A DNA stretch of 60,401 bases from Promethearchaeota archaeon Loki_b32 (GTDB lineage Archaea > Asgardarchaeota > Lokiarchaeia > Sigyniarchaeales > SOKP01), in assembly GCA_005223125.1 (NCBI GenBank), contig NJBH01000024.1, positions 1-60,401 on the forward strand, read 5' to 3'. A program made the translations under genes and the position numbers. A model generated the notes under the pieces. It was given only the letters and a program-made list of their open reading frames with translations. It searched no databases and was not told where the DNA came from. Numbering within the stretch: position 1 is the first letter of the stretch; the number at the start of each line of letters is the position of its first letter. Shown piece by piece: positions 2 through 17,085 of the stretch.

Positions 2-478
2 CTTTGGGGAATATTTCCATCAATGCAACCATTAACAGCAGAATGCTTTGCTCCCATAAATCAATATCCCGCTATATTAAATGACATTGATCAATGGGAC
101 ATGGAACATGATGAAGATATACGAAAAATATTTGAAATTACCAAAATTCGGTCTATAGCAGGAAGTGGTCCTGTTTTGCTTATAGATGGCAATAATGTGG
201 AAATAACATGTGGATTTACAAGTTTCTGGAGTTATTATAATGGAGAAGTTCATAAATTTATAGATGAAATAAATCTAAAGCTATGGGAATCATTATTAAA
301 AAGAGTTACTGAGCAGGGTGTGCAATGGTATATGATGGGAGATTTTATGTCGCGTTTAATGGTAGATTTAGGAGCATATTCAGAAGAATTTTATAATTTA
401 ATGAAATCAATAAAAAAAACTCTTGACCCAAATATGATTTTAAGTAGAGGAAAATTTAATTTTTGGGGTGAAAAATAA
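2..478 (+). CDS. FAD-linked oxidoreductase (GlcD/D-lactate dehydrogenase family), C-terminal part; gene starts before the window
   Basis: Frame open from position 2 (LWGIFPSM...). C-terminal IKKTLDPNMILSRGK motif. Colinear paralog of 12263-13768. Confidence 0.85.
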   Translation, partial: LWGIFPSMQPLTAECFAPINQYPAILNDIDQWDMEHDEDIRKIFEITKIRSIAGSGPVLLIDGNNVEITCGFTSFWSYYNGEVHKFIDEINLKLWESLLKRVTEQGVQWYMMGDFMSRLMVDLGAYSEEFYNLMKSIKKTLDPNMILSRGKFNFWGEK

Positions 479-480
479 AA

Positions 481-540
481 GTGAGTGAATTGAAACATTT
501 AAAGGAAGAATGGGAGGCTAAATTCACCTCTATTAGGTTT
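481..540 (+). pseudogene. Truncated N-terminal remnant of an Fe-S oxidoreductase paralog
   Basis: GTG at 481 reads MSELKHLKEEWEAKFTSIR, which aligns with MDDMKNLRKQWQAVFSC at 10977. It runs into the 3' end of the island gene. Confidence 0.5.
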
Positions 541-1621
541 AGGAAGAAAAATTTTCTCCCTTTAACCAAACAATAAATGAATCTTCAGACTCTTCTTTTG
601 GAGGTTCTTCTTTGTCATATTTGTAATTTACAGGTCTGCAAACTACTAAAGAAACATTGTCTAATAAAACACCTGCTAAGCTAGATCCTATTGATTGAGC
701 TTTTGACCCAAATGGAGAGATTATAATATGAAATTGATCATTAAAGATTCTTTTTTTAGAATCATAAAATTCTTTTATACCTAAAAAGAATTCAAAAGGA
801 TTATTATAAGGTAAATATAACATTTTATCAAATTGAAAATATTTATTAAAAAATTCTTTATTTTTTAGGAGAATATTAGTCGATTCCTCAGGCCATTGAG
901 TTGGAAATGTAATAATGGGATATAAACTTGCATTTTTTTTAAATTGTCGTTGATCTAAAACAAGCTTTATTAAATTTGGATCATATGATAAGATAGGCAA
1001 CCAAAAAACCATAGCATCCTTTTTCAATTCTTTTTCAAATAATGGTAAATTAATACTTAGATCATAATTCTCTACATTATGGTCGAAAGTAAATCCTCCC
1101 TTATTTGTCCATATAATAAATAAATTTGCTGTATCAACTAATTCATAAAAAATTTTGATTAAAGGAATAAATATTGCTCGAGGAATCGCTGAAACATCTA
1201 AAAAAATATTTTTATAATTTTTTATTTCGATTTTATCATTTATAATATTATAAATTTCTTCATGTCCAACTATATTTTCATATTCATTTATTCTGTTGTA
1301 TGGGATGATCCTTAAATTTAACTTATACTCATCTTTCAATTTTTCTAAATTCTTTATATTCTCACTTGTTTTCTCGTCAATTTCCTTACTTTCTTCTATC
1401 CCGTAACCTTTTATTTCTTCTGATATTGAACTATGAGATTTTAAATAGAAATAAAAAAAATCAACTTTTAATTTTTCCAATTTCTTTAATTTAACTAATG
1501 ATTCTAAAGATGAGAAGGATCTTAATTCAAATCCAACATTTGCTATAAAAAGTGAGTTATCAAAATCGAAGCATTTAATGAACTCTCTCCATTCTTCAAA
1601 ATAGTACCAATTTTCAAACAT
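539..1621 (-). CDS. Hypothetical protein with two CARF-like/Rossmann-like halves (third gene of PRTase-ATPase operon)
   Basis: Motifs FIANVGFELRS...IFLDVSAIPR and WLPILSYD...IIISPFGSKAQS resemble the strand-turn-helix signature of CARF/DUF6293-like domains. The fold call is inference. Confidence 0.55.
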   Translation of the reverse strand: MFENWYYFEEWREFIKCFDFDNSLFIANVGFELRSFSSLESLVKLKKLEKLKVDFFYFYLKSHSSISEEIKGYGIEESKEIDEKTSENIKNLEKLKDEYKLNLRIIPYNRINEYENIVGHEEIYNIINDKIEIKNYKNIFLDVSAIPRAIFIPLIKIFYELVDTANLFIIWTNKGGFTFDHNVENYDLSINLPLFEKELKKDAMVFWLPILSYDPNLIKLVLDQRQFKKNASLYPIITFPTQWPEESTNILLKNKEFFNKYFQFDKMLYLPYNNPFEFFLGIKEFYDSKKRIFNDQFHIIISPFGSKAQSIGSSLAGVLLDNVSLVVCRPVNYKYDKEEPPKEESEDSFIVWLKGENFSS

Positions 1622-1629
1622 TTTAAAAC

Positions 1630-3714
1630 CTAGATGTTGTGATTCTTAATGAAATCAAATAATGTTTCCTTTACTCTCTTTTCTGGAGGAATTTTTCCTT
1701 TAATTATATAGTTTATAATTTGATTATAATCCAATATTCTATACCCACCATATTTTATAGGTAAATTGTAATAAACGCATATTAATCTGTTGAAATAAAA
1801 TGCATATTCAGATTTCTTTTGGAATTCTCGACTATAACCCTTACTGATGTCCTTAGAAATTATATATGAATTAGCTAGTGCTTCATTAATAAAATTATTT
1901 TGTTTTAATGATAAAAAATCTTCTAGTTTAGAAAGAGCAAAACCAGTTCGTCCATTATCATATGACAAACGAATATTAAATTGATCACGTAAGAGTTTTT
2001 CGATAGTATTAATGAAGTTAAATAATAATTTCCCATATTTAGTACTTTTTATCAACTTATCTTTATACTTCAATTTAGCATATTCATGAATTGCCTCATT
2101 TTGAAGTTTGTAGTTAATTTCGGGAAATTCAAAAATAGAACCATATTGTTTTATTTGCCAGGCAAAATATTTTCTAAAAATACTGTCTAAAATCTCAAAT
2201 AAATCCTTAATGACATATGATGAAATTTTAATAATTGTATTAACTCCTGAATAAATCTTTTTTTTTTTTTCTTCTTTAGCAATTAAGAACAGACACATAT
2301 TTTTCATATTTCCAAAATTTTCAATTCTTTCACGATTGTTCTTGAGATTGCCCTTGATTTTGACCAAATTATGAATAGGGAGTTGATTTTTATATTCTCT
2401 CGCTGTAAGCCCTTCGCATATTCTTCTATCAATTGGATTTTCAATTGACATTAAAAATCGATATATATCTGATAAATAAATCAAATCTGTTATAAACTTT
2501 TTATCATTTATTAAATCAGATCCTTTAAGAATATTATTCACATTAGATTCATTCAAGGGTTCATCATAATTCATTATATTTTGAAAAGTTTCAATAGAAT
2601 CAAGTTTTTTAAGGACATTTTTTGAACATCGTTTAAAAAAACTATCGCTTTTTATCAAAGAACTATTTTCAGAATAAATTTTTGCTTCTTTTAATGGATC
2701 TAATTTAGGAAATACTTCTTCAATTTTGTTGAAATAATAATTATATTTTCTCAATCGGTAAATAATTATATCTTTCGCCATTTTTGAATAATAATTCTTT
2801 TTAGAATTAATTAGAATATAATCTAAATCGATAATAATAAGATCTCTTGTATCAAAATTATTCAATTTCTTACTTATAGAGGGTTTATCTCTACTTAATA
2901 ACTTAATTTCAAGTTTTTTGGTCCTCCTTCCAAATATTTCCAGTATAGGTTCGATTAAATTATCTGGTAGCCATGATAAATCATCCAATAACAATATTAT
3001 TCTTCTCAAGCCTAGTGGATTAGAATTTGTAATATCATTAATCACATCAGAAAAAAATTCTTCAGAATAAAATCTTAACTGATTTTTTTTTTCCTCAATT
3101 GATTTATAAGTACTTAAGAAATTACTTATTAAATCTAATTTTTCTCTGATTACTTTTTTTAGTTCATTTAATGTAGTTGTAGTTTTTATAAAATCAGGTA
3201 TATTTTCACTTTGCCATTCAAATTTGGTGTTTAAATTAAATAAACATTCAGTTTTTTTGAAAAAATTCTCTATATTTGATATAAATTGCATAATTACGAA
3301 AATTGAGAAATAAAAAATGAATAATTTTTTCCATTCATCTCCTTTGAGTCTTGATCCATAGAAATTCTTATTCAAATCTTCATGTAAATTTATATAAAAA
3401 CCAAAGAAAGGTAAAATCTCATTTTTATTAGATGATTTCAAATATTCATATAAAAAATCAAATTTTTTAAGATTTTTACTATTAACCTCTAATACTACAT
3501 CCCATACTAATAATCGGATTAAACTTGATTTTCCGGTTCCAGGAGCACCAAGCAAGATATTATCAATACTCTTAAAAATTGCTGTCAATTCCGGTATCTT
3601 GAATGGTTCAACTGATAATGAATAGATGTAATCCTTAACGTCAGTATTTAATAATTCATTTCTCCCAATTTGAAATGGATTAGGAGGTGCATCAAAATTT
3701 CGTCTTTTTATCAT
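1630..3714 (-). CDS. Large P-loop ATPase, STAND/ORC-CDC6-like
   Basis: N-terminal NPF, Walker A LLGAPGTGKSS, Walker B IILLLDD. 694 aa. Separated from its neighbours by 8-10 nt. Confidence 0.75.
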   Translation of the reverse strand: MIKRRNFDAPPNPFQIGRNELLNTDVKDYIYSLSVEPFKIPELTAIFKSIDNILLGAPGTGKSSLIRLLVWDVVLEVNSKNLKKFDFLYEYLKSSNKNEILPFFGFYINLHEDLNKNFYGSRLKGDEWKKLFIFYFSIFVIMQFISNIENFFKKTECLFNLNTKFEWQSENIPDFIKTTTTLNELKKVIREKLDLISNFLSTYKSIEEKKNQLRFYSEEFFSDVINDITNSNPLGLRRIILLLDDLSWLPDNLIEPILEIFGRRTKKLEIKLLSRDKPSISKKLNNFDTRDLIIIDLDYILINSKKNYYSKMAKDIIIYRLRKYNYYFNKIEEVFPKLDPLKEAKIYSENSSLIKSDSFFKRCSKNVLKKLDSIETFQNIMNYDEPLNESNVNNILKGSDLINDKKFITDLIYLSDIYRFLMSIENPIDRRICEGLTAREYKNQLPIHNLVKIKGNLKNNRERIENFGNMKNMCLFLIAKEEKKKKIYSGVNTIIKISSYVIKDLFEILDSIFRKYFAWQIKQYGSIFEFPEINYKLQNEAIHEYAKLKYKDKLIKSTKYGKLLFNFINTIEKLLRDQFNIRLSYDNGRTGFALSKLEDFLSLKQNNFINEALANSYIISKDISKGYSREFQKKSEYAFYFNRLICVYYNLPIKYGGYRILDYNQIINYIIKGKIPPEKRVKETLFDFIKNHNI

Positions 3715-3724
3715 GATAGAAACT

Positions 3725-4921
3725 CTATTTTTTATGTCTTTCTACTCGAGGAAATAATGGTCTCCAATTGTCTGGATACCAAATTAAATAAACTGTATTA
3801 TTTGGTACATTATTGTATCTAACTATGGATAATCCTCTATTTCCAAACCCATATTTAATTCCATCACCTAATTTATAGGGGGGCTTTAATGTAGGTTCTA
3901 TTCTTTCGTAATAATCATCACATAAATTCTTAAATCCTTTTGCATCTTCTCTTTTAATGTTTCTAAGTTCTGAATTTGAACATTCCTCTATAACTCTCAG
4001 TTCATTCGGAATAACTAACTGAGGCAAAATATGTATTTTGTCATAGTTGATAATATAATTTAAGTTTCCATAATATTTTAACATAGATTCTAATCGACAT
4101 TTGGAAAAGTATGTTATAATATAGGGGCAATATATAATTTGATAATCTTTATTAAAATCAAGTAAATGATTCCAATAACTTATAAATTTAATAAGTTGAC
4201 CTCTGAGTTCAGGTTTCTTTAATTTCTCATTTATTTTAATTTCATTAGTGTTTTGAATAGTGTCAATATTTTTCTCAGATAACCAAAATTCGATATTATT
4301 CTTATCTCTCAAGAAAGTAGTACCAGTTCCTACAAAATCTTCAAGCAGGAAAAAAAACCTATACGTTTTTTTTCTTTCTTCAAAATTTTTAAAAGCTATT
4401 TCAAATTGAGCATCAGTATGTAATTTGTAATATGATATTGTTTGATCATTATCTTCTATATTGAATCTTCGAAAATCATCAATCATAGCACCATCACTCA
4501 ATGCAATAAATAAAGATTGATTTAGATAATCCTTTAGATATTTGAAGGCTTTATCATATTCTAAGGAACCATATTCATCATTTTCTTCAATTATTTTATT
4601 CAAGAGATATTTTCTTATTTTTTCTCGAAAAATTTGATGTGAAAGTATCTTCATTTCTTCTCTAGTAAAAAATATCACACAATCTAATACTTTTAATGCC
4701 TTCATTCTATCTTCTGGTTTGAAATCTTTTAACCATAAATAGAGATGCTGAAAAAAACTTAAACCAGGGGAAAAATGTTCATAATTCTTGAATTTTACCT
4801 CATTTAGAAATATTAGATTTTCTTTAAACTCATCATCAAGTTTAAAGTCTACTAATTCATCAATTTTATTAAGTATAAAAGTATCTTCCGCCCAAAGTGA
4901 TTCCATAATTATCCTTTTCAT
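3725..4921 (-). CDS. Phosphoribosyltransferase-like protein of the conflict-system-associated type
   Basis: PRPP-binding loop FFLLEDFVGTGTT. C-terminal YGFG...NNVPNNT...W...WRPLFPR. Confidence 0.75.
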   Translation of the reverse strand: MKRIIMESLWAEDTFILNKIDELVDFKLDDEFKENLIFLNEVKFKNYEHFSPGLSFFQHLYLWLKDFKPEDRMKALKVLDCVIFFTREEMKILSHQIFREKIRKYLLNKIIEENDEYGSLEYDKAFKYLKDYLNQSLFIALSDGAMIDDFRRFNIEDNDQTISYYKLHTDAQFEIAFKNFEERKKTYRFFFLLEDFVGTGTTFLRDKNNIEFWLSEKNIDTIQNTNEIKINEKLKKPELRGQLIKFISYWNHLLDFNKDYQIIYCPYIITYFSKCRLESMLKYYGNLNYIINYDKIHILPQLVIPNELRVIEECSNSELRNIKREDAKGFKNLCDDYYERIEPTLKPPYKLGDGIKYGFGNRGLSIVRYNNVPNNTVYLIWYPDNWRPLFPRVERHKK

Positions 4922-5047
4922 CCAAAATAGTTAAAATTTTAAATTTTTTAATTATTTCATAATTTATAACAATTTATTTAAATATCTGTCTCTTAATTTT
5001 TATATAAATATAATAATTTAAAAATCTTAACGAATTGGATATTTTTT

Positions 5048-7180
5048 ATGGTGTCTAAAGAGATTTTTATTACTGGTTTAATAACTACTGATCATATTGT
5101 AATCGAGAACGGAGGATATAAGAGTTATTTGGGTTCTATTGGAGGGGGTTCTGCTGCAAATGTATATTTTACCTTGAAAACTTTTAATACTCCGGCTAAA
5201 TTGATTGGGGCAGTAGGCGAAAAAAAGCCTTACTTATCCAAAGTTGCGATAAAAGATTTTATTAATGATTTAGATGAAAATATAATCTACCATAGTAAAA
5301 ATTCCGAAACTAGGGAATATTATCATATAATAGAAAGAAAAAATGGTACATGGAGACATAAATTTAGTTCTGCTTCACCTTTTTCAAATTCTAAGCAATC
5401 TTTCTCAGTGCAATTAAGGAAATCATACTTCTTCAAGAAATTCAATGATTCAATAATGAGTTGTGCTATTTTTTACTTAGATCGGCTTTCTAAAGGATTG
5501 CTTGAATTAGCAGAAATTGCTAAAAAACGACAGATACCTATAATTTTTGATTTTGGTACTATTTCTACAAGATACTTAAAGACTAATCTAATCTTAAAAG
5601 CTATTAAAATGGCAAATATTATACAAATTCCTAAAAATATTCATGAGTTTTTAAGAAGTCAATTAGAATTTAAAAAACTCCAAGATATTAATCCCAATAT
5701 TGATATATGGGTACTTACTGATGGATCTAACCCATTAAAGGCATATCATTCAAAAATTGGGGAGATTGTCATGGATATTCCTCACTTGGATAATACTATT
5801 GATAGTGGTGGGGCTGGTGATGCTTTTATGGCAATTATGATTAGACAAATATATTTTCTAAGAAAAGATAATAAAAAAATAATTGATATGGATAGAGGTC
5901 AATTTGAGGTATTTATTAAAAATTGTATCGAAAATGCTAAAAAAGCATGTATGTTTATTGGATCAAGAACCTATTTATACGAATATATAGAGAGTAGAAA
6001 TAAATTTCGTAGTTTAAATGATTATTTTAGTAATTATGAATATAATGGAAATAATATTGAAAAATCCAAAGCATTAATAGAAAATTATGGAAAGAGGATT
6101 CAAGAAATAAATGATAGTATGAATCAGAGAATAAATAAAGAAAATTTAAAATTAAAAAAAGGCCTAAATCAATTTGAGAGTAATCTTTTAAATATTTCTA
6201 AATTTATTCCTTACGTTTTAGAAAAAACTGTAGAGTCTTTGAATATTAAAGATTTAGGAGGTTCCTTAATATTAATAGGCTCTGGAGCTTCTTTTAGTGT
6301 CGCTAAAGCAATACAGCAAATTTTCTCCCCACCAAATAATGTTCTATCAACTTATTCTTTCACACCTTATCAATACATATTAAAAATTAATGAGAATTAT
6401 CCAATTTGTATTATAAGTTACAGCGGTACTAATAATGATGTTAAAAGTTGTTTTAAAAAGGCTAAATTAAATAAAAGCAAAAAAATTTATCTTTTAACCA
6501 GTAATCGTGATTCAGTTTTATCCAAACAAGTTGAAAAGCATACAGGTGGAAAGGTTTTCTATATTAATACCTACAAAAGTGAAAAGGGATTTGTTGGAGT
6601 ATATTCGATGATTGGTAATATTTGTGTATTGGCAAAAATATTACTAAGCAATAATTGGAAATCAGAATATTCAGAATACCTTTCTGAAAAAAACTTACAT
6701 AAATTAATAAATAGTTATATTGTAAAAATGAGTAAGAAGATTCAATTAATTAAAAATAAAAACCCATCAATAAAAAACCATATCGTAGCTCTGGGTACAA
6801 ATTGGGCTGAACCAGTATTATACGATCTAGAATCAAAGATAGTTGAATCAAATTTGGGAACAATTGAAATTTCAGAATTAAAAAATTTTACACATGGAAG
6901 ATATGTCAATCTTTATAAAAATCCTGAGAATAGACTTGTGTTAATTTTCAAAACACCTGAGACTGAAAATTTAACGGATTTTCTTACTGAAAAATTATCA
7001 AAAATTGCACCAACCATAGTTTTAGAGACTAAAAAAGAGAGTTTTTTAGGAATGATCGATTTATTCATACAAATGTTAGTTTTCATTAATGAATTAGGTA
7101 AAATATATCATCAAGATCCATCAAAACCCGGTTTCCCTGAAGCAGCAAAGGGTTTATACAATTGGAATGGTTTATTGTGA
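5048..7180 (+). CDS. PfkB-family sugar kinase fused to two SIS (sugar isomerase) domains
   Basis: GGGSAANV and DSGGAGDAF (PfkB signatures). LIGSGAS, ISYSGTN and ELKNFTHG (GlmS-like tandem SIS). Confidence 0.85.
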   Translation: MVSKEIFITGLITTDHIVIENGGYKSYLGSIGGGSAANVYFTLKTFNTPAKLIGAVGEKKPYLSKVAIKDFINDLDENIIYHSKNSETREYYHIIERKNGTWRHKFSSASPFSNSKQSFSVQLRKSYFFKKFNDSIMSCAIFYLDRLSKGLLELAEIAKKRQIPIIFDFGTISTRYLKTNLILKAIKMANIIQIPKNIHEFLRSQLEFKKLQDINPNIDIWVLTDGSNPLKAYHSKIGEIVMDIPHLDNTIDSGGAGDAFMAIMIRQIYFLRKDNKKIIDMDRGQFEVFIKNCIENAKKACMFIGSRTYLYEYIESRNKFRSLNDYFSNYEYNGNNIEKSKALIENYGKRIQEINDSMNQRINKENLKLKKGLNQFESNLLNISKFIPYVLEKTVESLNIKDLGGSLILIGSGASFSVAKAIQQIFSPPNNVLSTYSFTPYQYILKINENYPICIISYSGTNNDVKSCFKKAKLNKSKKIYLLTSNRDSVLSKQVEKHTGGKVFYINTYKSEKGFVGVYSMIGNICVLAKILLSNNWKSEYSEYLSEKNLHKLINSYIVKMSKKIQLIKNKNPSIKNHIVALGTNWAEPVLYDLESKIVESNLGTIEISELKNFTHGRYVNLYKNPENRLVLIFKTPETENLTDFLTEKLSKIAPTIVLETKKESFLGMIDLFIQMLVFINELGKIYHQDPSKPGFPEAAKGLYNWNGLL

Positions 7181-8042
7181 TTATGTTATGGTAGAATCTT
7201 TTTTCAAGCTAAGAACCTTTCCTAAAAATTCTATTTATAATATAATCAATGCTAAACTAAGAAAGATCGATAAGTTTAAACCCTTTTTGTTAAAAACTTT
7301 AGATAAAAATCTTAAATCGATCTTTAAAACCCATTTTAGAGGCTTAGCCTTAGATTTTGATGGAACTCTAATTCCTTTAAAGGATAGATATCAGATTGTT
7401 GAATCCAGCATTTTAAGAATATTACTTTTATTAAATCGCAAAAAATTTCCGATATTTATATTAACTGGAAGAGGTAAGTCCATATTCCAACAAATTCCCT
7501 TTAATGAGTTCATACATATTAATCATATTATTATTGTTCAATATAATGGAGGACGACTAAGATATGGTAATCAAGATTTAATTAAAGAGGAAAATATGAA
7601 AACAATTAAAAATTATTGTGAAGTAAAGATGATTTTAGATAAAAATGAAATTCAATATGCAGAAAAAGTCTCTGGATTCTTCTGTCAAACGACTTTTGGG
7701 AGTGATCAGATTTTTAATGCAATTCAAGAAAAATATAAAAATTGGAATGTTTTGAATACAAAATATAGTTTTGATATAGTGCCTTCTCATATATCTAAAG
7801 GTTTAGCTTTAAAATATTCATCAAAATTATTTTGCAAATTAAAAAATAGCTTAATATTGAAAATTGGAGATTCGGGAGATATTAATGGAAATGATTACAG
7901 CTTTCTTAAAATGAAAAACAGTTTTTCTGTTGGTGATTATTCTTCAGATCTGAACACAAATTTTCCAGTAGTTGATGAAAATAATATTCATTTAAAAGGT
8001 CCTGACGGTTTAAGATATCTTTTTTCTTATTTTTCTATTTAA
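7167..8042 (+). CDS. HAD-superfamily subclass IIB phosphatase
   Basis: LALDFDGTL, ILTGRG, SKG, IGDSGDINGND. Overlaps the upstream gene by 14 nt. Confidence 0.85.
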   Translation: MVYCDYVMVESFFKLRTFPKNSIYNIINAKLRKIDKFKPFLLKTLDKNLKSIFKTHFRGLALDFDGTLIPLKDRYQIVESSILRILLLLNRKKFPIFILTGRGKSIFQQIPFNEFIHINHIIIVQYNGGRLRYGNQDLIKEENMKTIKNYCEVKMILDKNEIQYAEKVSGFFCQTTFGSDQIFNAIQEKYKNWNVLNTKYSFDIVPSHISKGLALKYSSKLFCKLKNSLILKIGDSGDINGNDYSFLKMKNSFSVGDYSSDLNTNFPVVDENNIHLKGPDGLRYLFSYFSI

Positions 8043-8118: not shown

Positions 8119-9570
8119 ATGGAAATATCTAAGATAAGAAATGCATTAAGAAATATTGATTGGTCTAAAATTTGCAATTGTTGGAGTGTGGAAGTTCGGA
8201 AAAATCAGTATTCTCAATATCAAAAAATCACTTTAAATCCATATCAAGAATGTTCTGATAATAATCCTTTATATAAGCATAAAGATTGGCTAAAATATCT
8301 TTATTATAGTGAAGATTTTCAAATGACTGATGAAAAACTTGCTAAATTATGTAATATTACAAAGGATGCAGTATATTACTGGAGAAAAAAGATACATGAT
8401 CTTAAAGGAAAGGATGAATGGGGTGAAGGTCGCTGGATTGATAATAGGAGTAAAAGAATATACATCAGAGTTCCAAAAGATTATAATCATCCCCAATTGA
8501 CTTTAGAAAAGGGAAGAAAGCGGTTATATAGACCTGAACACACATATCTTATGGAAAAGTTCTTATCTGACCGTCCAGAATTGGAAATCTCTCATAAATA
8601 TCTAATTGATGGAAAATATTTAAAAAAACAATGTGAAGTACATCATATTAATTTTAATCCCCAAGATAACCGAATTGAAAACCTATGGGTATATGAAAAC
8701 AAGAATTCACATGCTAAAGGAGAGAAATCGATAAGAAAAGTATTTTCAATTCTAATAAAATCAAATTGTATTGTTTTTATAAAAGGTAAATATTACTTTA
8801 ACCAAAACCTTGATATTAATTGTGTATCTCGTCCAGAAATAATCAATTTAGAAAGAAATCAATCCAAAAATAATCCAATTAATAATATGTGTTTAAACGA
8901 AATTCAAGAAGCAATAAAAACGATAAATTGGAATAATATTTCTAGAAATTGGAAAGTAATTAAACATTATAATCAATTTAAAGAAGAAATAATCAACCTA
9001 AATCCATATAAAAATTGCTCCGATGAGAATCCTCTTTACATGCATAAAGAATAGTTTAAGAGGATATATACTGATCCCCGTTTTAACCTTTCCGATTCAA
9101 AACTAGGAAAAATCTGTAGTATTTCTAAAGATAAAGCAAGATATTGGAGAAAAAAAGTACACAGAATTGAAGGAAAAAAGGAGTGGGGAATTGAACGGAT
9201 AATTGATAAATCTGATGGTCGTGTCTGGGTACGTGTACCTAAAACCTATTACAATCCCGTTGTAGATAAAGGAAAATATCATAGAAGAATTATGATTGAA
9301 CATCGTTATATTATGGAGAAATACTTATCAAAACATCCTGAATGGGGTATTTCGAGAAGATGTCTTATTGATGGAAAATATTTAAAATCAGAATGTGAAG
9401 TACACCACATTAATCTTGATTATCAAGATAACAGAATTGAGAATCTTTGGGTTTTTGAAACAAATGAAGCACATCAAGAAGCAAGAAGATCCTTATATGC
9501 ATTAGTAGAAACTTTATTGAATAGACGAATTATAAAATTTGAAGGTGGATTTTACAGATTAGAAAATTAA
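8119..9570 (+). pseudogene. Internally duplicated HTH-HNH endonuclease with one in-frame TAG (9052-9054)
   Basis: Two copies of HHIN...DNRIENLW...H. ORFs 8119-9054 and 9292-9570 share a frame. The TAG sits where repeat 1 has Trp (HKDWLK vs HKE*FK). Confidence 0.8.
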
Positions 9571-9687: not shown

Positions 9688-10803
9688 TCATAAAGAGCTT
9701 ACCCAATCTCTAAATTTTAATTCTTCAAAATCTATTGTACCTTCCTTCCCACCGAATAATTTCTTAAATTTTAGATCTAATCCTTCTTCTTTTATATTAG
9801 GATTTATTAATATTATATTTACATTTTTTTCTATATCTACTCGATTTAATCCTTTGATGAAATAATACTTTGATATAAAATCTGCATCAGGAAGAGAATA
9901 TCCTATAAGATATATGAAATCTGCTTTAGATAATTTCTGAATGATATTCAACCAAATTATATTAAATATTGGATTTTTGAAGTTTTTCAAATGAGTTAAT
10001 GGAATTATATTTTCTAATAATCTAACTCTTCTTAATGGATTTTCTCCAAATGAGTTAGGACATTCATAAAAATAAGAGGGATAGAATATGAGATTAATTC
10101 CAGGTAAGTAATAGTAATTATAACATTTAGGACAATATAACCAATTTAAAGAACTATGAGGTTTAAGGAGTAGTGGGACCTCATCAGAGTTAAAACTTAA
10201 GTTAATGTCAGAGTTCTTACATCTACACTCTTATACAACATCTTTCCAACTATATCCTGTTGATTCAATAAAATCTTTCATCGGAATAAAATCAAATCCA
10301 TAATTTAAGTCTTGGAAAATGGCTTTAACAGCATTATCTATTAAAGTATCATAATTAAATGAGATGATTGTGTCATTTTTATTTAATTTTTTAACAAAAC
10401 TTAGATAAGGTTCTGTCGTTCCGTCATCATTTAAAGATTTTTCTATGGACTTACAAATGGTCTCTCTGATAAGGAAAATAAAGTCCTCACGACGAATAAT
10501 TGTACGATCCCCTTCTGATTCATAAAGAAGAGATTCCTCTTTTTCGTAAGCAATATCGAATAATGTAAAGATATCTTCTATATTTGGTAAATTTGAATTT
10601 TGAATTTCCAGAAGGGAGTCTCCTACATAATATCTTGGATTTGGCTGAATCTCTAGAATTCTTGATAGTATATCTTCTGTATATAAAATATCTTTTTTCC
10701 GCTTAGATTTTAATATTTCAACATATTTATTTAAAAAATTATTTCCTAAAGGAGCACCAGCATGTAAGGATGCTCCAGCTCCAAATACAAAAATTCTATT
10801 CAT
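9688..10803 (-). pseudogene. SIR2-like (SIR2_2, defence-type) protein with one in-frame TAA (10231-10233)
   Basis: FVFGAGAS, ISFNYD, LKPHSSLNW, CPKC and IGYSLPDAD all lie in one frame across the stop. The canonical HGS reads HSS. Confidence 0.8.
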
Positions 10804-10976: not shown

Positions 10977-12243
10977 ATGGATGACATGAAAAATTTGCGT
11001 AAACAATGGCAAGCCGTATTTTCCTGTATAGATTTTAGATATATCATCTAAAACGCAGAAGGGATGCGGCGATTGTGGGTATGCTATTAGACCTGCAGTT
11101 GGAAGATACTTAACATGTCCTGTATTGGAAGCTAAAGGAGATGAAGGATTTGAAATATATTTTTCAAGAGGACGTATGAATGTTTTAAAGAGTATTTTAG
11201 AAGGCCAAATCCCATTGAGTAAAGAACTCGCAGAATGGGTATATCAATGTTCTGAATGTGGAAATTGCACTGAAGTTTGTCATATGTCTCAGAATCCAAA
11301 TATTGTTCTCCCCACGTGTAATTGGATAGATCATGTGAAAGTATGGGAAGCATTAAGAAAAGATTTGGTTGAAGCTGGTTTTGCTCCACTTGATAGACAT
11401 AGTAATCTAATTGAATATATGGATAATGATAAAATTAAAAATCCATATGGAGAGGAGAGAAATAAAAAATTAGAATGGATAGAAGAATTTCCTGAAATTA
11501 AGGATCGGGGTGAATTCATGTTTTTCGGTGGCTGTACCATGCCTTTAAGACAAGTAGATACTCTAAGAAGTATGATGAAGATTTTAAAAGTCGCAGGTAA
11601 AGAAATCGCAATGACCAAAGAAGAATGGTGCTGTGGGTCTATTGCATTACGTATTGGTGATGAAAAATCTTTAATTGACATTGTTAAGCATAATATTACA
11701 GAATTTGAAAAAAAAGGTACTAAAACATTGTTTACAGCATGTGCTGGATGTTATAGAACTTGGAAGAAAGATTATCCTGAATTATTAGGTGAAGAATTAC
11801 CATTTGAAGTAAAACATATTACAGAAATATTAGTAGATTTACTTAATAATAACCAAATCCCTTTTAAAGAGAAAGAACAAGAAGAAGTAAAAGTAACTTA
11901 CCATGATCCTTGCCATCTAGGACGGCATATGGACCTTTATGATATCCCTCGTGAAATAATTTCTAAAATTCCAGGAATTAATCTAATAGAAATGAAAAGA
12001 ACTAAGAACAATGCTTGGTGTTGCGGAGCAGGTGGTGGAGTAAAGAGTCAATTTCCAGATTTAGCGCTCAAAATCTCAGAAGAACGAATAAAAGAAGCAA
12101 TTGAAACCGGTGCTCAAATATTGACGACAAGTTGTCCATTTTGTATAGGGAATCTGGGGGATGCATATGAGGAAATAGATGCTTCTATTAAAGACAAAAT
12201 CAAGGTTGTTGATATAATTGATCTTATTGCTTCTAAACTATAG
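10977..12243 (+). CDS. Fe-S oxidoreductase (GlpC/HdrD-like: two 4Fe-4S motifs plus two CCG domains), interrupted by a 31-nt intron at 11030-11060
   Basis: CSECGNCTEVC, WCCG, TACAGC, YHDPCHLGR, WCCGAGGG, TSCPFC. The first ferredoxin motif (CMGCGDC...CP) forms only after removing 31 nt. Confidence 0.85.
11030..11060 (+). other. Putative BHB intron in mRNA (31 nt)
   Basis: Central helix CUGU/GCAG, 3-nt bulges AUA and AAG, inner stem UUUUAGAU/AUCUAAAA, outer stem GCCGUA/UGCGGC. Excision restores the frame. Confidence 0.8.
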
Positions 12244-12262: not shown

Positions 12263-13768
12263 ATGTCAAAATTATACCAAAAATTAGAAAGAATTGTATC
12301 TGAAAAAAGAATATCTAATAACTTATATATTCGACACGCTTATTCTAGGAATGTTTCTTCTAATCTCCAAGGTGTCCCTGATCTTGTTATACGACCAAAA
12401 AGTACAGAAGAAATTTCTGAAGTTTTAAAAATCGCTAATGAAGAAAATATCCCTGTTATTCCTCGAGGTGGAGGAGATTGCGAATTTGGAGGGAGTAAAC
12501 CTATAGGAGATACTGGTATTGTTTTGGATACTAAAAGCATGAATAGTATCTTGAATTTGGATGAGGAAAATTTAATCGTTACTGTCGAAGCTGGAATTTC
12601 TTGGGGTAAATTAAATGAATATTTATGTCATTACGGGCTTTACACTGGATGTTTGGGTCCAGGATCTGGAATGACTTCATCAATAGGAGGAGGAATCTCG
12701 CATCATTCAGTAGGGGGCGGTGGATGTGCCAAATATGGGGCTTGTACTAATCAATTGGTTTCATTAGAAGTTGTTTTACCAACTGGAGAGATCATTGAAA
12801 CAGGATCACAAGCAAATCGATATTCAAAAATTCCATTCAACAGATTTGGAAACGGTCCAGACTTAGCTGGACTATTTTGTGGTGATAATGGACTATATGG
12901 GATCAAAGCTAAGGTTTCATTACAAGTGTTTCCAAAACCAGAATTCGCAAACTATAAAACATTTTTAATGCCTAGAAAATCACTTGAAATTTCAGCTCAA
13001 ATAATGAATGAAATCAGACAGAAAGGGATTGATATTTATGATGCAATGTATTTCATGGATTTAGTTGTATCTTTAGGAATCCAGTATGGCTTGTTCCCTA
13101 TGTGGGAACATTTAAAGAGAAAAAGAGGTATAATATTTTATACAATTGAAGCGAATTCAGAGGTAGAATTAGATGAGAAAACTAAACAATTAGATAATAT
13201 CTTTTTAAATAAAAAAGCTGAAGAATTTGGATCCGAAATTTCGGAGGGGAATATTGCTAAATGGCATTATGAAGAACAAGGCCATTGGTTAATCGCACAT
13301 AATTTATGGGGGCTAGTACCTGGATTTGATCCTGTAGATGCTGAGTGTAAAGTCCCCATTAACGCGTATCCTAAGATTATGAGAGACCTAGATCAATGGG
13401 ATTTGGAACACTCTGAAGATATGCAAAAAATTCTGGAGATTACTGGCATGAGACCAGTTACTGGTAGTGGTCCAATTATAATGGTTAAGGACAACAATGT
13501 GGAGTTAACATGTGGATTTTCTAGCTTTACAAGCTATTATAACGGTGAAAAGCATACTATAATTGATGAAATTAATATTAAATTATGGAAATCTCTTTTA
13601 GAAAGGTTAGTCAAACATGGAGCCATGTTTTATATGCAAGGGGACATACTTAGTAGACTTATGGTCGATATTGGAGGTTATCAAAAAGAGTTCTATGAGC
13701 TGATGAAAGCCATTAAAAATGTAATTGATCCTAATCATATTTTAAGCCGGGGAAAATACAATTTTTGA
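12263..13768 (+). CDS. FAD-binding oxidoreductase (GlcD/D-lactate dehydrogenase family)
   Basis: PVIPRGGG, VEAGI, SIGGG, KYG, LEVVLPTG, C-terminal DPNHILSRGK. Operonic with the Fe-S subunit. Confidence 0.9.
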   Translation: MSKLYQKLERIVSEKRISNNLYIRHAYSRNVSSNLQGVPDLVIRPKSTEEISEVLKIANEENIPVIPRGGGDCEFGGSKPIGDTGIVLDTKSMNSILNLDEENLIVTVEAGISWGKLNEYLCHYGLYTGCLGPGSGMTSSIGGGISHHSVGGGGCAKYGACTNQLVSLEVVLPTGEIIETGSQANRYSKIPFNRFGNGPDLAGLFCGDNGLYGIKAKVSLQVFPKPEFANYKTFLMPRKSLEISAQIMNEIRQKGIDIYDAMYFMDLVVSLGIQYGLFPMWEHLKRKRGIIFYTIEANSEVELDEKTKQLDNIFLNKKAEEFGSEISEGNIAKWHYEEQGHWLIAHNLWGLVPGFDPVDAECKVPINAYPKIMRDLDQWDLEHSEDMQKILEITGMRPVTGSGPIIMVKDNNVELTCGFSSFTSYYNGEKHTIIDEINIKLWKSLLERLVKHGAMFYMQGDILSRLMVDIGGYQKEFYELMKAIKNVIDPNHILSRGKYNF

Positions 13769-14001: not shown

Positions 14002-14904
14002 ATGACAACAAAACTTACATTTATAGGTAAACCAGAAGTAGGAAAGACAACAATAAAGAAGGTTATCTTTGAAGGAGAAGACCCAAATAAGTTAATTCTC
14101 TTTCCACTTGAAGCTTCAGTGCGGATTGATTATTCTGTTCACGAATTTATGGATTCTAAAATTGTTTTAATAGATACGCCAGGACAATCTTTATCAGATT
14201 TATTAGAAGATGAAGAAAAGCAAAGAAGGTCTTTTGAAAATGCTAATGCAATAGTATATATTTTCGATTATCCAACTTATATAGAAAATTCTGAATATAT
14301 AATTAATGACATTAGGAGGGTCTATAACATTAATAAGAAACTTGATTTTGATGCTAAAATCATTTTGTTTTTACATAAAATTGATCTTATAATCGCCAAA
14401 AAAATTGGTTTTAAACTCGCCATTGTCAAAAAACAAATTAACAAATTATTAAGTTTACCTGAAGATTTACCGATTCATTTCACCAGTTTACATCCTAACT
14501 TGATATACACGATTTATAATGCTTTATCTGATACAATTGGGAATTTTTCAGAGGACATTTCAAATTTAAAGGGTTTAATCAGTAATTTAACTAAGGATTT
14601 ATCTAAAACTATTAGTTTTGTTTCTAATAAAGAAGATAACCTAATTATCCAAGTAATTTCAGATGATTTTGATACATCTATCCTTTTTTCTCTCTATGAA
14701 AAAATTTATAAACTAAGTAGTTCACCAGATGATCTCTTATCTAAGAGCAATTTAATTACATTAGATTCCAAGATATTACATACTGTGAGTGCAAATATCT
14801 CAACTTTTAATACAAATTTTAAAAACATAATATTCTTATCTGAGACATTAGAAAGTAATGAATTAAATAACCTAATTGGAGAACTTAAAGAAAAGTCAAG
14901 TTGA
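14002..14904 (+). CDS. Rag/Gtr-like small GTPase with C-terminal roadblock/longin-like domain
   Basis: G1 GKPEVGKT, G3 DTPGQ, G4 HKID (Rag-type His). Confidence 0.8.
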   Translation: MTTKLTFIGKPEVGKTTIKKVIFEGEDPNKLILFPLEASVRIDYSVHEFMDSKIVLIDTPGQSLSDLLEDEEKQRRSFENANAIVYIFDYPTYIENSEYIINDIRRVYNINKKLDFDAKIILFLHKIDLIIAKKIGFKLAIVKKQINKLLSLPEDLPIHFTSLHPNLIYTIYNALSDTIGNFSEDISNLKGLISNLTKDLSKTISFVSNKEDNLIIQVISDDFDTSILFSLYEKIYKLSSSPDDLLSKSNLITLDSKILHTVSANISTFNTNFKNIIFLSETLESNELNNLIGELKEKSS

Positions 14905-15104
14905 ATCGGAGATTATAGATATGTTACGGCAAGTATGAATTTCCTTAAATTTCTTTTATTGCAAGTCATATTGGAATTGAATAAGAATCTCTTAATGGAA
15001 TCTATCGTTTTACTCAAGTTTAAATAAATTCATTTTTATTTGATTATAAAAAATACTTATTATTCTTATTAAAAAATAAATTTATAGAAATAAGATGGAG
15101 AACT

Positions 15105-16022
15105 ATGATAACTAAACGTGTTGCCTTGGTTGGTAAACCAGAAGTAGGTAAAACTACAATTAAGAAAGTAATCTTTGAGGGAGAAGATCCTAATGAATTA
15201 GTTCTTTTCCCTCTTGAAGCAACAATAGGAATAAAATATTCTGTACATGAATTTATGGATATGAAAATAAGTTTATTAGATACTCCCGGCCAATCTTTAC
15301 CTATACTATTACAAGATGAAGAAAAACAAATTGCTTCATTTGAAAACACTGGTGCAATAATCTACATTTTTGATTATCCAACTTGGATTACAGATTCTCA
15401 AGATATTATCGATGATATTCAAACTCTTTATAAAATTAACAAAAAACATGATTTTGGATCCAAAATTGTTCTGTTTTTACACAAAGTTGATCTCTTAATA
15501 GATAAAAAGATTGGGAGTAGGCTTGATCTTATTGGAAAACAAATAAATAAACAATTAGATTTACCAGAAGATTTTCCGATATATTTCACTAGCTTACACC
15601 CAAATTTAATCTACACCATTTATAATGCGATATCAGATACATTTAGTAATTTTTCAGAAGATTCTTCAAAATTGAAAGAAATTATAAAGAAAACAATAAA
15701 ACATTCATCTAAAACAATTTGCTTTGTTTCTAATCGAGAAGGTAACCTAATTATTCAGTCTTCTAGTCCAGATTTTGACACAACTACTCTTTACTATTTA
15801 TATGAGAAGATCTATCAATTTAGTAAAACCCCAGAGCAACCTCTTTCAAACAACAAGTTTATAAACGCAGGATCTAAATTATTATGTATGATAATTGAGG
15901 ATATTGGTAAATTTCATCCTTCCTTTAAGAATTTATTATTTTTCTCCGAAACATTGAAAGAAAATGACTTAAATGAATTTATCAATGAAATTGAGAAAGA
16001 ATTAGGCCAAATCTATAATTGA
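15105..16022 (+). CDS. Rag/Gtr-like small GTPase, tandem paralog
   Basis: GKPEVGKT, DTPGQ, HKVD. Colinear with 14002-14904. Confidence 0.8.
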   Translation: MITKRVALVGKPEVGKTTIKKVIFEGEDPNELVLFPLEATIGIKYSVHEFMDMKISLLDTPGQSLPILLQDEEKQIASFENTGAIIYIFDYPTWITDSQDIIDDIQTLYKINKKHDFGSKIVLFLHKVDLLIDKKIGSRLDLIGKQINKQLDLPEDFPIYFTSLHPNLIYTIYNAISDTFSNFSEDSSKLKEIIKKTIKHSSKTICFVSNREGNLIIQSSSPDFDTTTLYYLYEKIYQFSKTPEQPLSNNKFINAGSKLLCMIIEDIGKFHPSFKNLLFFSETLKENDLNEFINEIEKELGQIYN

Positions 16023-16047
16023 TTGAAAAATAATTGAGAAACTAGAC

Positions 16048-17085
16048 ATGTTACGACAAATTTATATAATTTTAAATGATAACATAATATATCAAAGGAA
16101 TTATGCTAAAGGTTTAGATGATTCTCTCTTTACAAATGTTTATTTAAATATTAAAAAAGCCGCTTTTGCTAAATTTGCTGATGTAATTAGATCATATGAA
16201 TTTTTTGAATTTAAACTCTCATATATAGTAGAAAAAAGTTTGAATTTAATATTTCTTTTCGTAACTGGATTAGGAGATGAATTTAAAAATATAAAGCCTC
16301 AATTAAGTGACTTTAGGAAAGAATTTTTAGATTTTTATCATGATAATATTAAAGAGAATAACCTTAAAATTGTAACAGAGATTTTAGACCCAATTGTTGA
16401 TAATATTCATAGAAATTTAAAACCAAAAATATCGATTGTGGGATTTTCTGGAGTTGGAAAGACTACAACTACCAAATTGATAAAATCAGAAGAAATTCCT
16501 ATGCAACATATTCCTACGATCACAGGTGAAGTCGCAACAATAAAAATTGGGAAATTACACTTCTTTTTATGGGATTTTGCTGGCCAAGATCAATTTGATT
16601 TTTTATGGGAGAAATTTATAAGAGGAAGTGATGCAGTTTTATTAATGACAGATTCAACACTGGAGAACCTCGAAAAGAGCAAATACTTTTTCTTATTAGT
16701 AAATAAAGAAGTCCCATATGCGCGTTTAGCAGTTATCGCAAACAAACAAGATTTACCAGAAGCGATGAAGGTGGAAGATATTGAGAGATTAATGGGAACA
16801 AAAACTTATTCTTTCATAGCTATTGACCCAAACAATCGACCAAAAATGATCCGTATTATAGCAGATCTTTTAGATATGGATGCGAAGGTATCACCTTTGC
16901 TAAAACCAATATTTGAGCGAGATACACTTATGGATAAAGCACAAAAAGCTTTAGAATTAGGTGAATTTAATGAAACAGTAGAAATCTTTGAAAAAATAAG
17001 TAATATTTGCCTAGAACTTGGAGATGATTCTCTTGCAATTGAACTTCAAGAGAAAGCCGACAAATTAAGAAGCTTTTTAGGATAG
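16048..17085 (+). CDS. Longin-like domain + Arf-like GTPase + helical tail
   Basis: GFSGVGKT, PTI, WDFAGQ, NKQD. The N-terminal ~120 aa has a longin-like pattern. Confidence 0.85.
   Translation: MLRQIYIILNDNIIYQRNYAKGLDDSLFTNVYLNIKKAAFAKFADVIRSYEFFEFKLSYIVEKSLNLIFLFVTGLGDEFKNIKPQLSDFRKEFLDFYHDNIKENNLKIVTEILDPIVDNIHRNLKPKISIVGFSGVGKTTTTKLIKSEEIPMQHIPTITGEVATIKIGKLHFFLWDFAGQDQFDFLWEKFIRGSDAVLLMTDSTLENLEKSKYFFLLVNKEVPYARLAVIANKQDLPEAMKVEDIERLMGTKTYSFIAIDPNNRPKMIRIIADLLDMDAKVSPLLKPIFERDTLMDKAQKALELGEFNETVEIFEKISNICLELGDDSLAIELQEKADKLRSFLG

Follow-up and report, generated by a model that had tools for sequence, protein, structure and literature searches.

Do tRNA-type introns with a bulge-helix-bulge (BHB) structure interrupt metabolic genes in archaea of the Asgard group, and by which route would such introns get there? 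In archaea, cbf5 has the only confirmed intron in a coding sequence, with others predicted and one further case located in a 5' UTR (PMC2738675, PMC7714728). How BHB introns arrive is a question left open by a preprint of 2026 that deals with tRNA introns of Asgard archaea (bioRxiv 10.64898/2026.10.13.758758). The locus described here belongs to Promethearchaeota archaeon Loki_b32 (GCA_005223125.1) and was analyzed within positions 1-60,401 of the forward strand of contig NJBH01000024.1, a stretch of 60,401 nucleotides that we call the window (Table 1). The gene for the Fe-S subunit of a flavin/Fe-S oxidoreductase is broken there by 31 nt inside its first 4Fe-4S motif. Our best overall explanation, which we consider very probable, is a BHB intron in coding sequence that is spliced by EndA and RtcB, with spread linked to an HNH endonuclease as a second layer.

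Anatomy of the insert and the predicted splice junction

Read without splicing, the frame opened by the ATG at 10977 ends at the TAA at 11049-51 after 24 codons. Excision of positions 11030-11060, which corresponds to a cut after the second base of each bulge, produces a single frame of 411 amino acids (10977-12243) whose product reads S-C-M-G-C-G-D-C, with the junction splitting the Met codon between AT and G. The central helix joins CUGU (11024-27) to GCAG (11055-58) by C-G, U-A, G-C and U-G pairs, and on each strand a bulge of 3 nt lies 3' of these four base pairs (AUA at 11028-30 and AAG at 11059-61). Outside, the structure is continued by C-G, U-G and U-A pairs; toward the inside, a single G-C pair and a bulged A precede an 8-bp hairpin. 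The frame, helix and bulges located by a first-pass annotation of this DNA are all correct to the base, and the excision of 31 nt that it derived from the EndA rule, restoring both the frame and the motif CMGCGDC, is borne out by the 411-amino acid frame and by the junction seen in orthologs. It had missed the stacked double introns in relatives, the other interrupted genes, and the linked HNH nuclease with its tract of foreign DNA, which are described below.

These features differ in how much they can carry. Constraining the fold to the BHB costs 0.8 kcal/mol (-20.3, compared with -21.1 for the free minimum, whose structure differs slightly from the BHB), and the folding z is -2.55. Frame rescue alone proves nothing because many other deletions of 28-40 nt, dozens in all, also restore the frame. 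Random genomic 31-mers form a 4/4 helix in 1.7% of cases, and the helix together with the bulge A's and the first inner pair in 0.09%; motif-only BHB scans of this AT-rich genome gave counts equal to those in decoy registers, and BHB-like folds are not rare genome-wide. With frame rescue weak and such folds at decoy level, the case rests on comparison. Intron-free orthologs define one single best cut, and because the excision that they define coincides with that given by the BHB rule, the junction is fixed. A genome-wide intron count from motif-first scans was dropped for being at decoy level, with only its top energy ranks later backed by homology. We also rejected a self-splicing group I or group II intron, whose catalytic core takes hundreds of bases, for an insert of 31 nt with no Rfam match at E<=1.

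The host genome holds two EndA genes, one for an alpha subunit with a Tyr/His/Lys catalytic triad and one for a second subunit that does not have the His, as well as one gene for an RtcB ligase; the EndA genes are on contigs C18 and C2 and the RtcB gene is on C48. A two-subunit EndA has been reported from Asgard archaea (bioRxiv 10.64898/2026.10.13.758758), and the pair found here agrees with it. In the mechanism that we propose, this two-subunit EndA would cut behind the second base of both bulges in the pre-mRNA of the oxidoreductase subunit. Joining of the exons by RtcB would give Cys-Met-Gly and the complete first 4Fe-4S motif, whereas unspliced RNA would encode 24 residues only.

Table 1. 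Features of the window and inserts in other genes of the Loki_b32 genome (positions are those of the window unless a contig is named)
Feature	Position	Strand	Remarks
GlcD-like FAD oxidoreductase gene, 3' end	2..478	+	Donor-type; 77% (amino acids) to the sister's upstream FAD gene
CARF-like gene	539-1621	-	Low-GC cargo
ORC/CDC6-like ATPase gene	1630-3714	-	Low-GC cargo
PRTase-CE gene	3725-4921	-	Low-GC cargo
PfkB-SIS fusion gene	5048-7180	+	Low-GC cargo
HAD hydrolase gene	7167-8042	+	Start overlaps the PfkB-SIS stop
Double-repeat HNH_3 endonuclease gene, free-standing	8119..9570	+	TAG at 9052-54 replaces a conserved Trp
SIR2-like gene	9688..10803	-	Located between exon 1 and the HNH gene; a single in-frame TAA (10231-33)
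Exon 1	10977..11029	+	17 codons and AT of Met18; first Cys of CxxCxxC; foreign relative to sister genomes
5' central-helix strand CUGU and 5' bulge AUA	11024..11030	+	Predicted cut 11029/11030
BHB intron, 31 nt	11030..11060	+	Frameshifting, with an in-frame TAA (11049-51) and an 8-bp hairpin inside
3' central-helix strand GCAG and 3' bulge AAG	11055..11061	+	Predicted cut 11060/11061
Exon 2	11061..12243	+	Rest of 4Fe-4S dicluster (Fer4_8) and two CCG domains; free of stops and frameshifts
Right end of foreign (co-converted) tract	11061..11142	+	Past ~+81 nt, ~95% gene identity with the intronless sister
GlcD-like FAD oxidoreductase gene, likely partner subunit	12263..13768	+	Recipient-type; 83-97% DNA identity to the sister
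uL11	C57 12438-12465		28-nt canonical BHB insert; only uL11 gene
Proteasome alpha	C4 22685-22713		29-nt canonical insert
cdhD	C45 47178-47210		33-nt canonical insert containing a stop; single-copy gene
radA	C33 1018-1048		31-nt canonical insert; single-copy; compared with paralogs only
E2 ubiquitin-conjugating gene	C30 11080-11110		31-nt canonical insert; compared with paralogs only
GlcD-like gene	C27 21006-21037		32-nt canonical insert; judged by motif and frame only
HdrA-like gene	C36 ~78600-78940	-	Two canonical inserts, 30 and 35 nt
Small GTPase gene	C63 ~17590	+	30-nt insert containing a stop; relaxed BHB fold
Acyl-CoA dehydrogenase gene	C60 ~7050, counted on the - strand	-	30-nt insert containing a stop; relaxed BHB fold

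Orthologous alleles and conservation of the fold

After removal of duplicates, we compared 63 alleles of the gene from one Promethearchaeota (Lokiarchaeia) family. The gene is uninterrupted in 35 of them, has a single insert at the identical site in 22, and has two stacked inserts in the other 6. All 35 uninterrupted alleles read S-C-M-(G/N)-C-G-D-C, which is what the first-pass annotation had expected of relatives that lack the 31 nt and share the junction. Among the first 22 orthologs from the same genus, 19 were uninterrupted and agreed exactly with the splice product as predicted, with either Gly or Asn following Met, and 3 carried other inserts at the same base. A pattern search across the family, in which both bulges were fixed and the 3' helix strand was left free, found 15 single inserts of 29, 30 or 31 nt in seven genera. 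Sampling without a pattern found 14 inserts among 44 loci, adding an insert of 34 nt and other 3' bulges. The single inserts of 29, 30, 31 and 34 nt cover all three frames, and all of those translated (20/20) give a stop when read through.

The central helix is complete (4/4) in all 15 inserts of the first set and in none of them in any of eight slid registers, in which the partner strand was shifted by 1-4 bases; overall, it is complete in 21 of the 22 single inserts, two of which were read by eye. Two-sided changes were found in 31 cells compared with 13.8 in shuffles, a level reached in 0 of 500 shuffles. Where the third base of the Ser codon is G, in alleles sampled without a pattern, its partner in the intron is a compensating C or U. 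The outer 2-3 pairs of the flanking helices are invariant across alleles, and the inner stem is 77% paired with two-sided changes. The intron sequences themselves are divergent among alleles (7 to 21 of 24 positions), so that what is conserved is the fold rather than the sequence. An apparently obligatory TCY Ser codon (16/16) was dropped as being in part an artefact of the search pattern, since TCG and TCA occur in the pattern-free sample and only TC is kept.

With the anatomy, the junction, the conservation of the fold, the constraint on the exons and the presence of the enzymes established, we infer from the comparison that the intron is cleaved out and the exons ligated in the cell, and we hold this to be highly probable. 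The tRNA-type splicing of a metabolic mRNA that the first-pass annotation proposed for this Asgard archaeon has thereby gained strong comparative support, with the event in the cell itself the part that stays a prediction.

Linkage to an HNH endonuclease and a foreign tract

The free-standing HNH gene upstream of exon 1 is not intact in the window, owing to the TAG at a conserved Trp, and its relatives are intact except that of genome G084. No match of the HNH protein to any solved structure was found. A search with this protein that was blind to intron state returned, as its closest relatives (57-74%), proteins encoded directly upstream of the same Fe-S gene in seven other genomes from four genera, and the Fe-S alleles beside them all bear an intron (7/7). 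When the window and locus L150 are included, this HNH clade stands upstream of 9 of the 28 intron alleles (an intron being present at 9/9 HNH loci) versus none of the 35 intronless alleles, a pairing for which Fisher values are overstated because kin are not independent. The HNH proteins upstream of the Fe-S gene form one clade (support 91), and within it the protein of the window is sister (99) to that of G146, a genome of another genus in which the intron is identical at 25 of 31 positions and exon 2 at only 72%. No HNH gene occurs within the 0.3-1.5 kb examined in 19 intron alleles. For HNH loci elsewhere, 1 of 21 has an adjoining intron within ~1.5 kb and 20 have none. At locus L206 (genome G091, ~2708-2736), a different HNH clade lies directly upstream of an AIR-synthase-like gene with a 29-nt BHB insert whose helix is 4/4. 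Other double-HNH clades (L202-L223) each have a fixed neighbor, among them enolase, GTPases and others, as is expected of site-specific elements.

The FAD gene abuts the Fe-S gene in 35 of 35 intronless alleles, and in 19 of the 28 intron alleles other DNA lies between the two; nine intron alleles abut the FAD gene without cargo. In the window, the intervening DNA is a low-GC stretch of 10.5 kb with CARF-like, ATPase, PRTase, PfkB-SIS, HAD, HNH and SIR2-like genes. The low-GC cargo at 539..8042 is a defense-type island, and within it the cluster of CARF-like, ORC/CDC6-like ATPase and PRTase-CE genes (539-4921) is likely a defense system carried as cargo of the tract. The SIR2-like gene is probably a pseudogene, with no insert seen at its single in-frame TAA. 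The foreign tract carries exon 1, the intron, the HNH gene and the defense island, and ends ~80 nt past the intron. Exon 1 has 19 window-specific changes in 53 nt compared with 2 in the sister, and together with the first ~81 nt of exon 2 it has 29 in ~135 nt. At the other side, contig C27 ends with a sister-like FAD gene and, behind it, GNAT, membrane and FAD genes arranged as in G146. Donor-type DNA of ~14 kb apparently arrived together with the intron, with the left end of the tract resting on an inferred join between C27 and C32 (the window) that was read from a split FAD gene.

In collaborative or trans homing of phages, a free-standing endonuclease targets the insertion site of an intron that lacks an endonuclease of its own, as with T4 mobE and the nrdB intron (PMC2988022, PMC2790892). 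The pattern of intron, HNH gene and tract fits what collaborative homing predicts (PMC2988022). Under such a mechanism, alleles without the intron would be cut by the HNH nuclease in the conserved Cys-motif codons or close to them, and an allele that carries the intron would be immune. Through repair, the recipient would acquire the intron along with exon 1, the nuclease gene and any cargo. Decay of the nuclease, which has a nonsense codon in the window, would follow and leave the intron and cargo in place. Judging from these associations, it is reasonably probable that the intron spreads as DNA with the free-standing HNH endonuclease.

The strongest competing account accepts splicing and attributes the patchy distribution to an old intron that was lost repeatedly, for instance via cDNA, or to ordinary recombination at an insertion hotspot, with the HNH gene as a passenger. 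It draws on the gene tree, where the intron is widespread on deep branches and so scattered that 10 changes are needed, with the copy of the window sister to an intronless allele, and on the nine cargo-free intron alleles next to the FAD gene. Against it, neither the HNH gene nor any cargo occurs beside an intronless allele (0/35), the HNH genes at the Fe-S site are of a single clade, and the tract in the window ends beside the intron and has an HNH gene and an intron that match those of another genus. We regard it as possible, if rather unlikely, and keep to HNH-linked spread as the preferred reading.

Other interrupted genes in the same genome

At least nine interrupted genes were seen in the host genome. 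The inserts in other genes (Table 1) were found by comparing the genome with itself and ranking the results, and several ‘insertions’ from the self-BLAST were dropped as gene boundaries or antisense shadows. For the three genes that were compared with relatives (uL11, proteasome alpha and CdhD), the orthologs give the predicted junction. Inserts occur in uL11 in ~14 of 26 relatives of the genus, each at one of three sites. Three intron sites are likewise found in cdhD, two of them in relatives, one of which is six bases away. The insert in proteasome alpha appears to be a recent gain because it is absent from all 28 readable orthologs. In a motif-free survey, sense-strand junctions were mostly 4/4, with 0 of 13 for antisense projections of the same inserts, and among roughly a dozen ordinary indels that keep the frame the motif formed in only one. 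Recent copying within the genome is unsupported for the intron of the window, as no second copy of it was found there. Once the first insert is taken out of the HdrA-like gene, a Cys motif still contains a TGA in frame, which probably encodes selenocysteine.

Selection on the gene and alternatives to splicing

Exon 2 encodes a 4Fe-4S dicluster domain and two CCG domains, and the product is a GlcF/HdrD/TfrB-like Fe-S protein adjoining a GlcD-like FAD gene. Its NCBIfam matches all fall below cut-off, so that no named family is reached. Most of its named relatives are labelled Promethearchaeota, i.e. Lokiarchaeia, and its closest paralog within the genome is 36% identical. Further downstream, at 14002-17085 (+) of the window, two tandem Gtr1/Rag-like GTPase genes are followed by an Arf/Roc-like GTPase gene, typical Asgard eukaryotic-signature genes.

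If the inserts were inactivating scars left by mutation or mobile elements, the window would hold a pseudogene copy and the fold would be incidental. The Fe-S gene is indeed missing from part of the genus and dispensable in some genomes, the HNH and SIR2-like neighbors are broken, and dN/dS is slightly raised in the lineage of the window. Yet the inserts occur in 28 alleles from several genera with full downstream frames wherever the locus is complete and was checked (14/14), and none of the 18 conserved Cys is lost in the 15 aligned intron alleles or in 20 intronless alleles. Synonymous sites are saturated with dN low, and where dS is unsaturated, comparison with the closest allele lacking the intron gives a dN/dS of 0.05-0.15. 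On the branch of the window, exon 2 has a dN/dS of 0.20, far below neutrality (p = 8e-7), and of 0.24 beyond the foreign tract, compared with ~0.10 in two sisters. Recent relaxation of selection on this particular copy is possible, because of these values (0.20-0.24) and the nonsense codons in two neighboring genes. The register-specific covariation of the helix and the interruption of the sole copies of uL11 and RadA also speak against scars, which we consider improbable.

The six alleles with stacked inserts bear on a further alternative, in which the ribosome would bypass the hairpin or shift frame over it, as in T4 gene 60, and the RNA would not be cleaved. In these alleles, the second intron takes its 5' helix strand from the last bases of the first intron, and its excision recreates the motif of the first. 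The helix of the second intron is 4/4 in four of the five computed alleles and 3/4 in the fifth, and in the opposite order it is 2/4. All six double alleles thus fit one splicing order only; ordered cleavage would yield such stacking, whereas chance scars or ribosomal bypass would not. Bypass would be in keeping with the stop codon that sits inside the hairpin, and HNH-linked cassettes are known at phage bypass sites. But the insert lengths of 29, 30, 31 and 34 nt fall in all three frames, the split Met codon leaves no matched take-off and landing codons, and the geometry is exactly that of the EndA rule, making bypass even less probable than scars. An artefact of assembly in this metagenome-assembled genome is refuted by the 27 other alleles, from other genomes and with different inserts at the same base, and has next to no probability, even though neither the spliced nor the unspliced junction was matched exactly in metagenome contigs and a look-up of the neighboring protein likewise gave no independent copy, in data that may omit this genome.

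We lean slightly toward a joint reading of these results. Splicing of the tRNA type would be routine in coding sequences of this Lokiarchaeia family, extending to essential single-copy genes and to obligately ordered stacked introns, and the ORF-less mini-introns would be the immunity half of a two-part selfish element that is driven by free-standing HNH nucleases, with multi-kilobase cargo such as defense islands, into conserved motifs across genera.

Comparison with known systems

The cbf5 intron of Desulfurococcales and Sulfolobales (Watanabe 2002; Yokobori 2009, PMC2738675) is the closest known counterpart. It is likewise a short BHB intron in coding sequence that splits a codon at a functionally critical motif and is gained and lost patchily; a heteromeric EndA cleaves it between the second base of the bulge and the third. 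Having every BHB feature that can be tested in sequence, the Loki_b32 intron is predicted to work as that of cbf5 does, and it differs in host, number of genes, stacking and the linked nuclease: it belongs to another phylum and to a metabolic Fe-S subunit gene, with at least nine genes interrupted. Splicing of cbf5 was established by cDNA, whereas that of the intron described here is predicted from DNA sequence. The BHB intron of Haloferax volcanii HVO_1309 (PMC7714728) is also an EndA substrate in an mRNA but lies in the 5' UTR, where it leaves the reading frame uninterrupted; cbf5 is given there as the sole other case in an mRNA.

In phage collaborative homing as at this locus, a free-standing HNH gene lies some way from an intron that has no ORF and sits in a conserved motif, flanking DNA is co-converted, and the nuclease decays. 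The phage system involves self-splicing group I ribozymes, in contrast to a 31-nt BHB intron spliced by the host, located on an archaeal chromosome with a multi-kilobase defense cargo, and with cleavage by the nuclease predicted. Splicing of XBP1 and HAC1 mRNA by IRE1 and RtcB (PMC13149111) similarly removes a short frameshifting intron with a protein endonuclease and a tRNA-type ligase; its nuclease and recognition motif are different and it is regulated by stress, a kind of control for which the Loki_b32 intron offers no evidence. We found no report of BHB introns in Asgard mRNAs, or of BHB introns paired with free-standing nucleases, in literature that covers subscription journals poorly.

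Many mRNAs apparently spliced by EndA and RtcB in the archaea closest to eukaryotes would bear on the origin of split genes and on RtcB-dependent mRNA splicing. If this is true, the prokaryotic kin of eukaryotes can arrive at genes in pieces by a working route that does not depend on group II introns. Real genes of such genomes, among them marker genes, are cut short or lost in standard annotation. With the intron so strictly tied to one HNH clade, and with a conversion tract that can be dated, the arrival of BHB introns becomes testable. Introns in Asgard tRNA genes (bioRxiv 10.64898/2026.10.13.758758) come from the same superphylum, with a two-subunit EndA and repeated gains at BHB-compatible sites; that preprint covers tRNA only, and the word ‘mRNA’ is absent from it. 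In Loki_b32 itself, only 22 tRNAs were found, and many of the tRNA genes (on contigs C29, C38, C48, C57, C61 and C64) have introns at noncanonical positions that are miscalled by ARAGORN.
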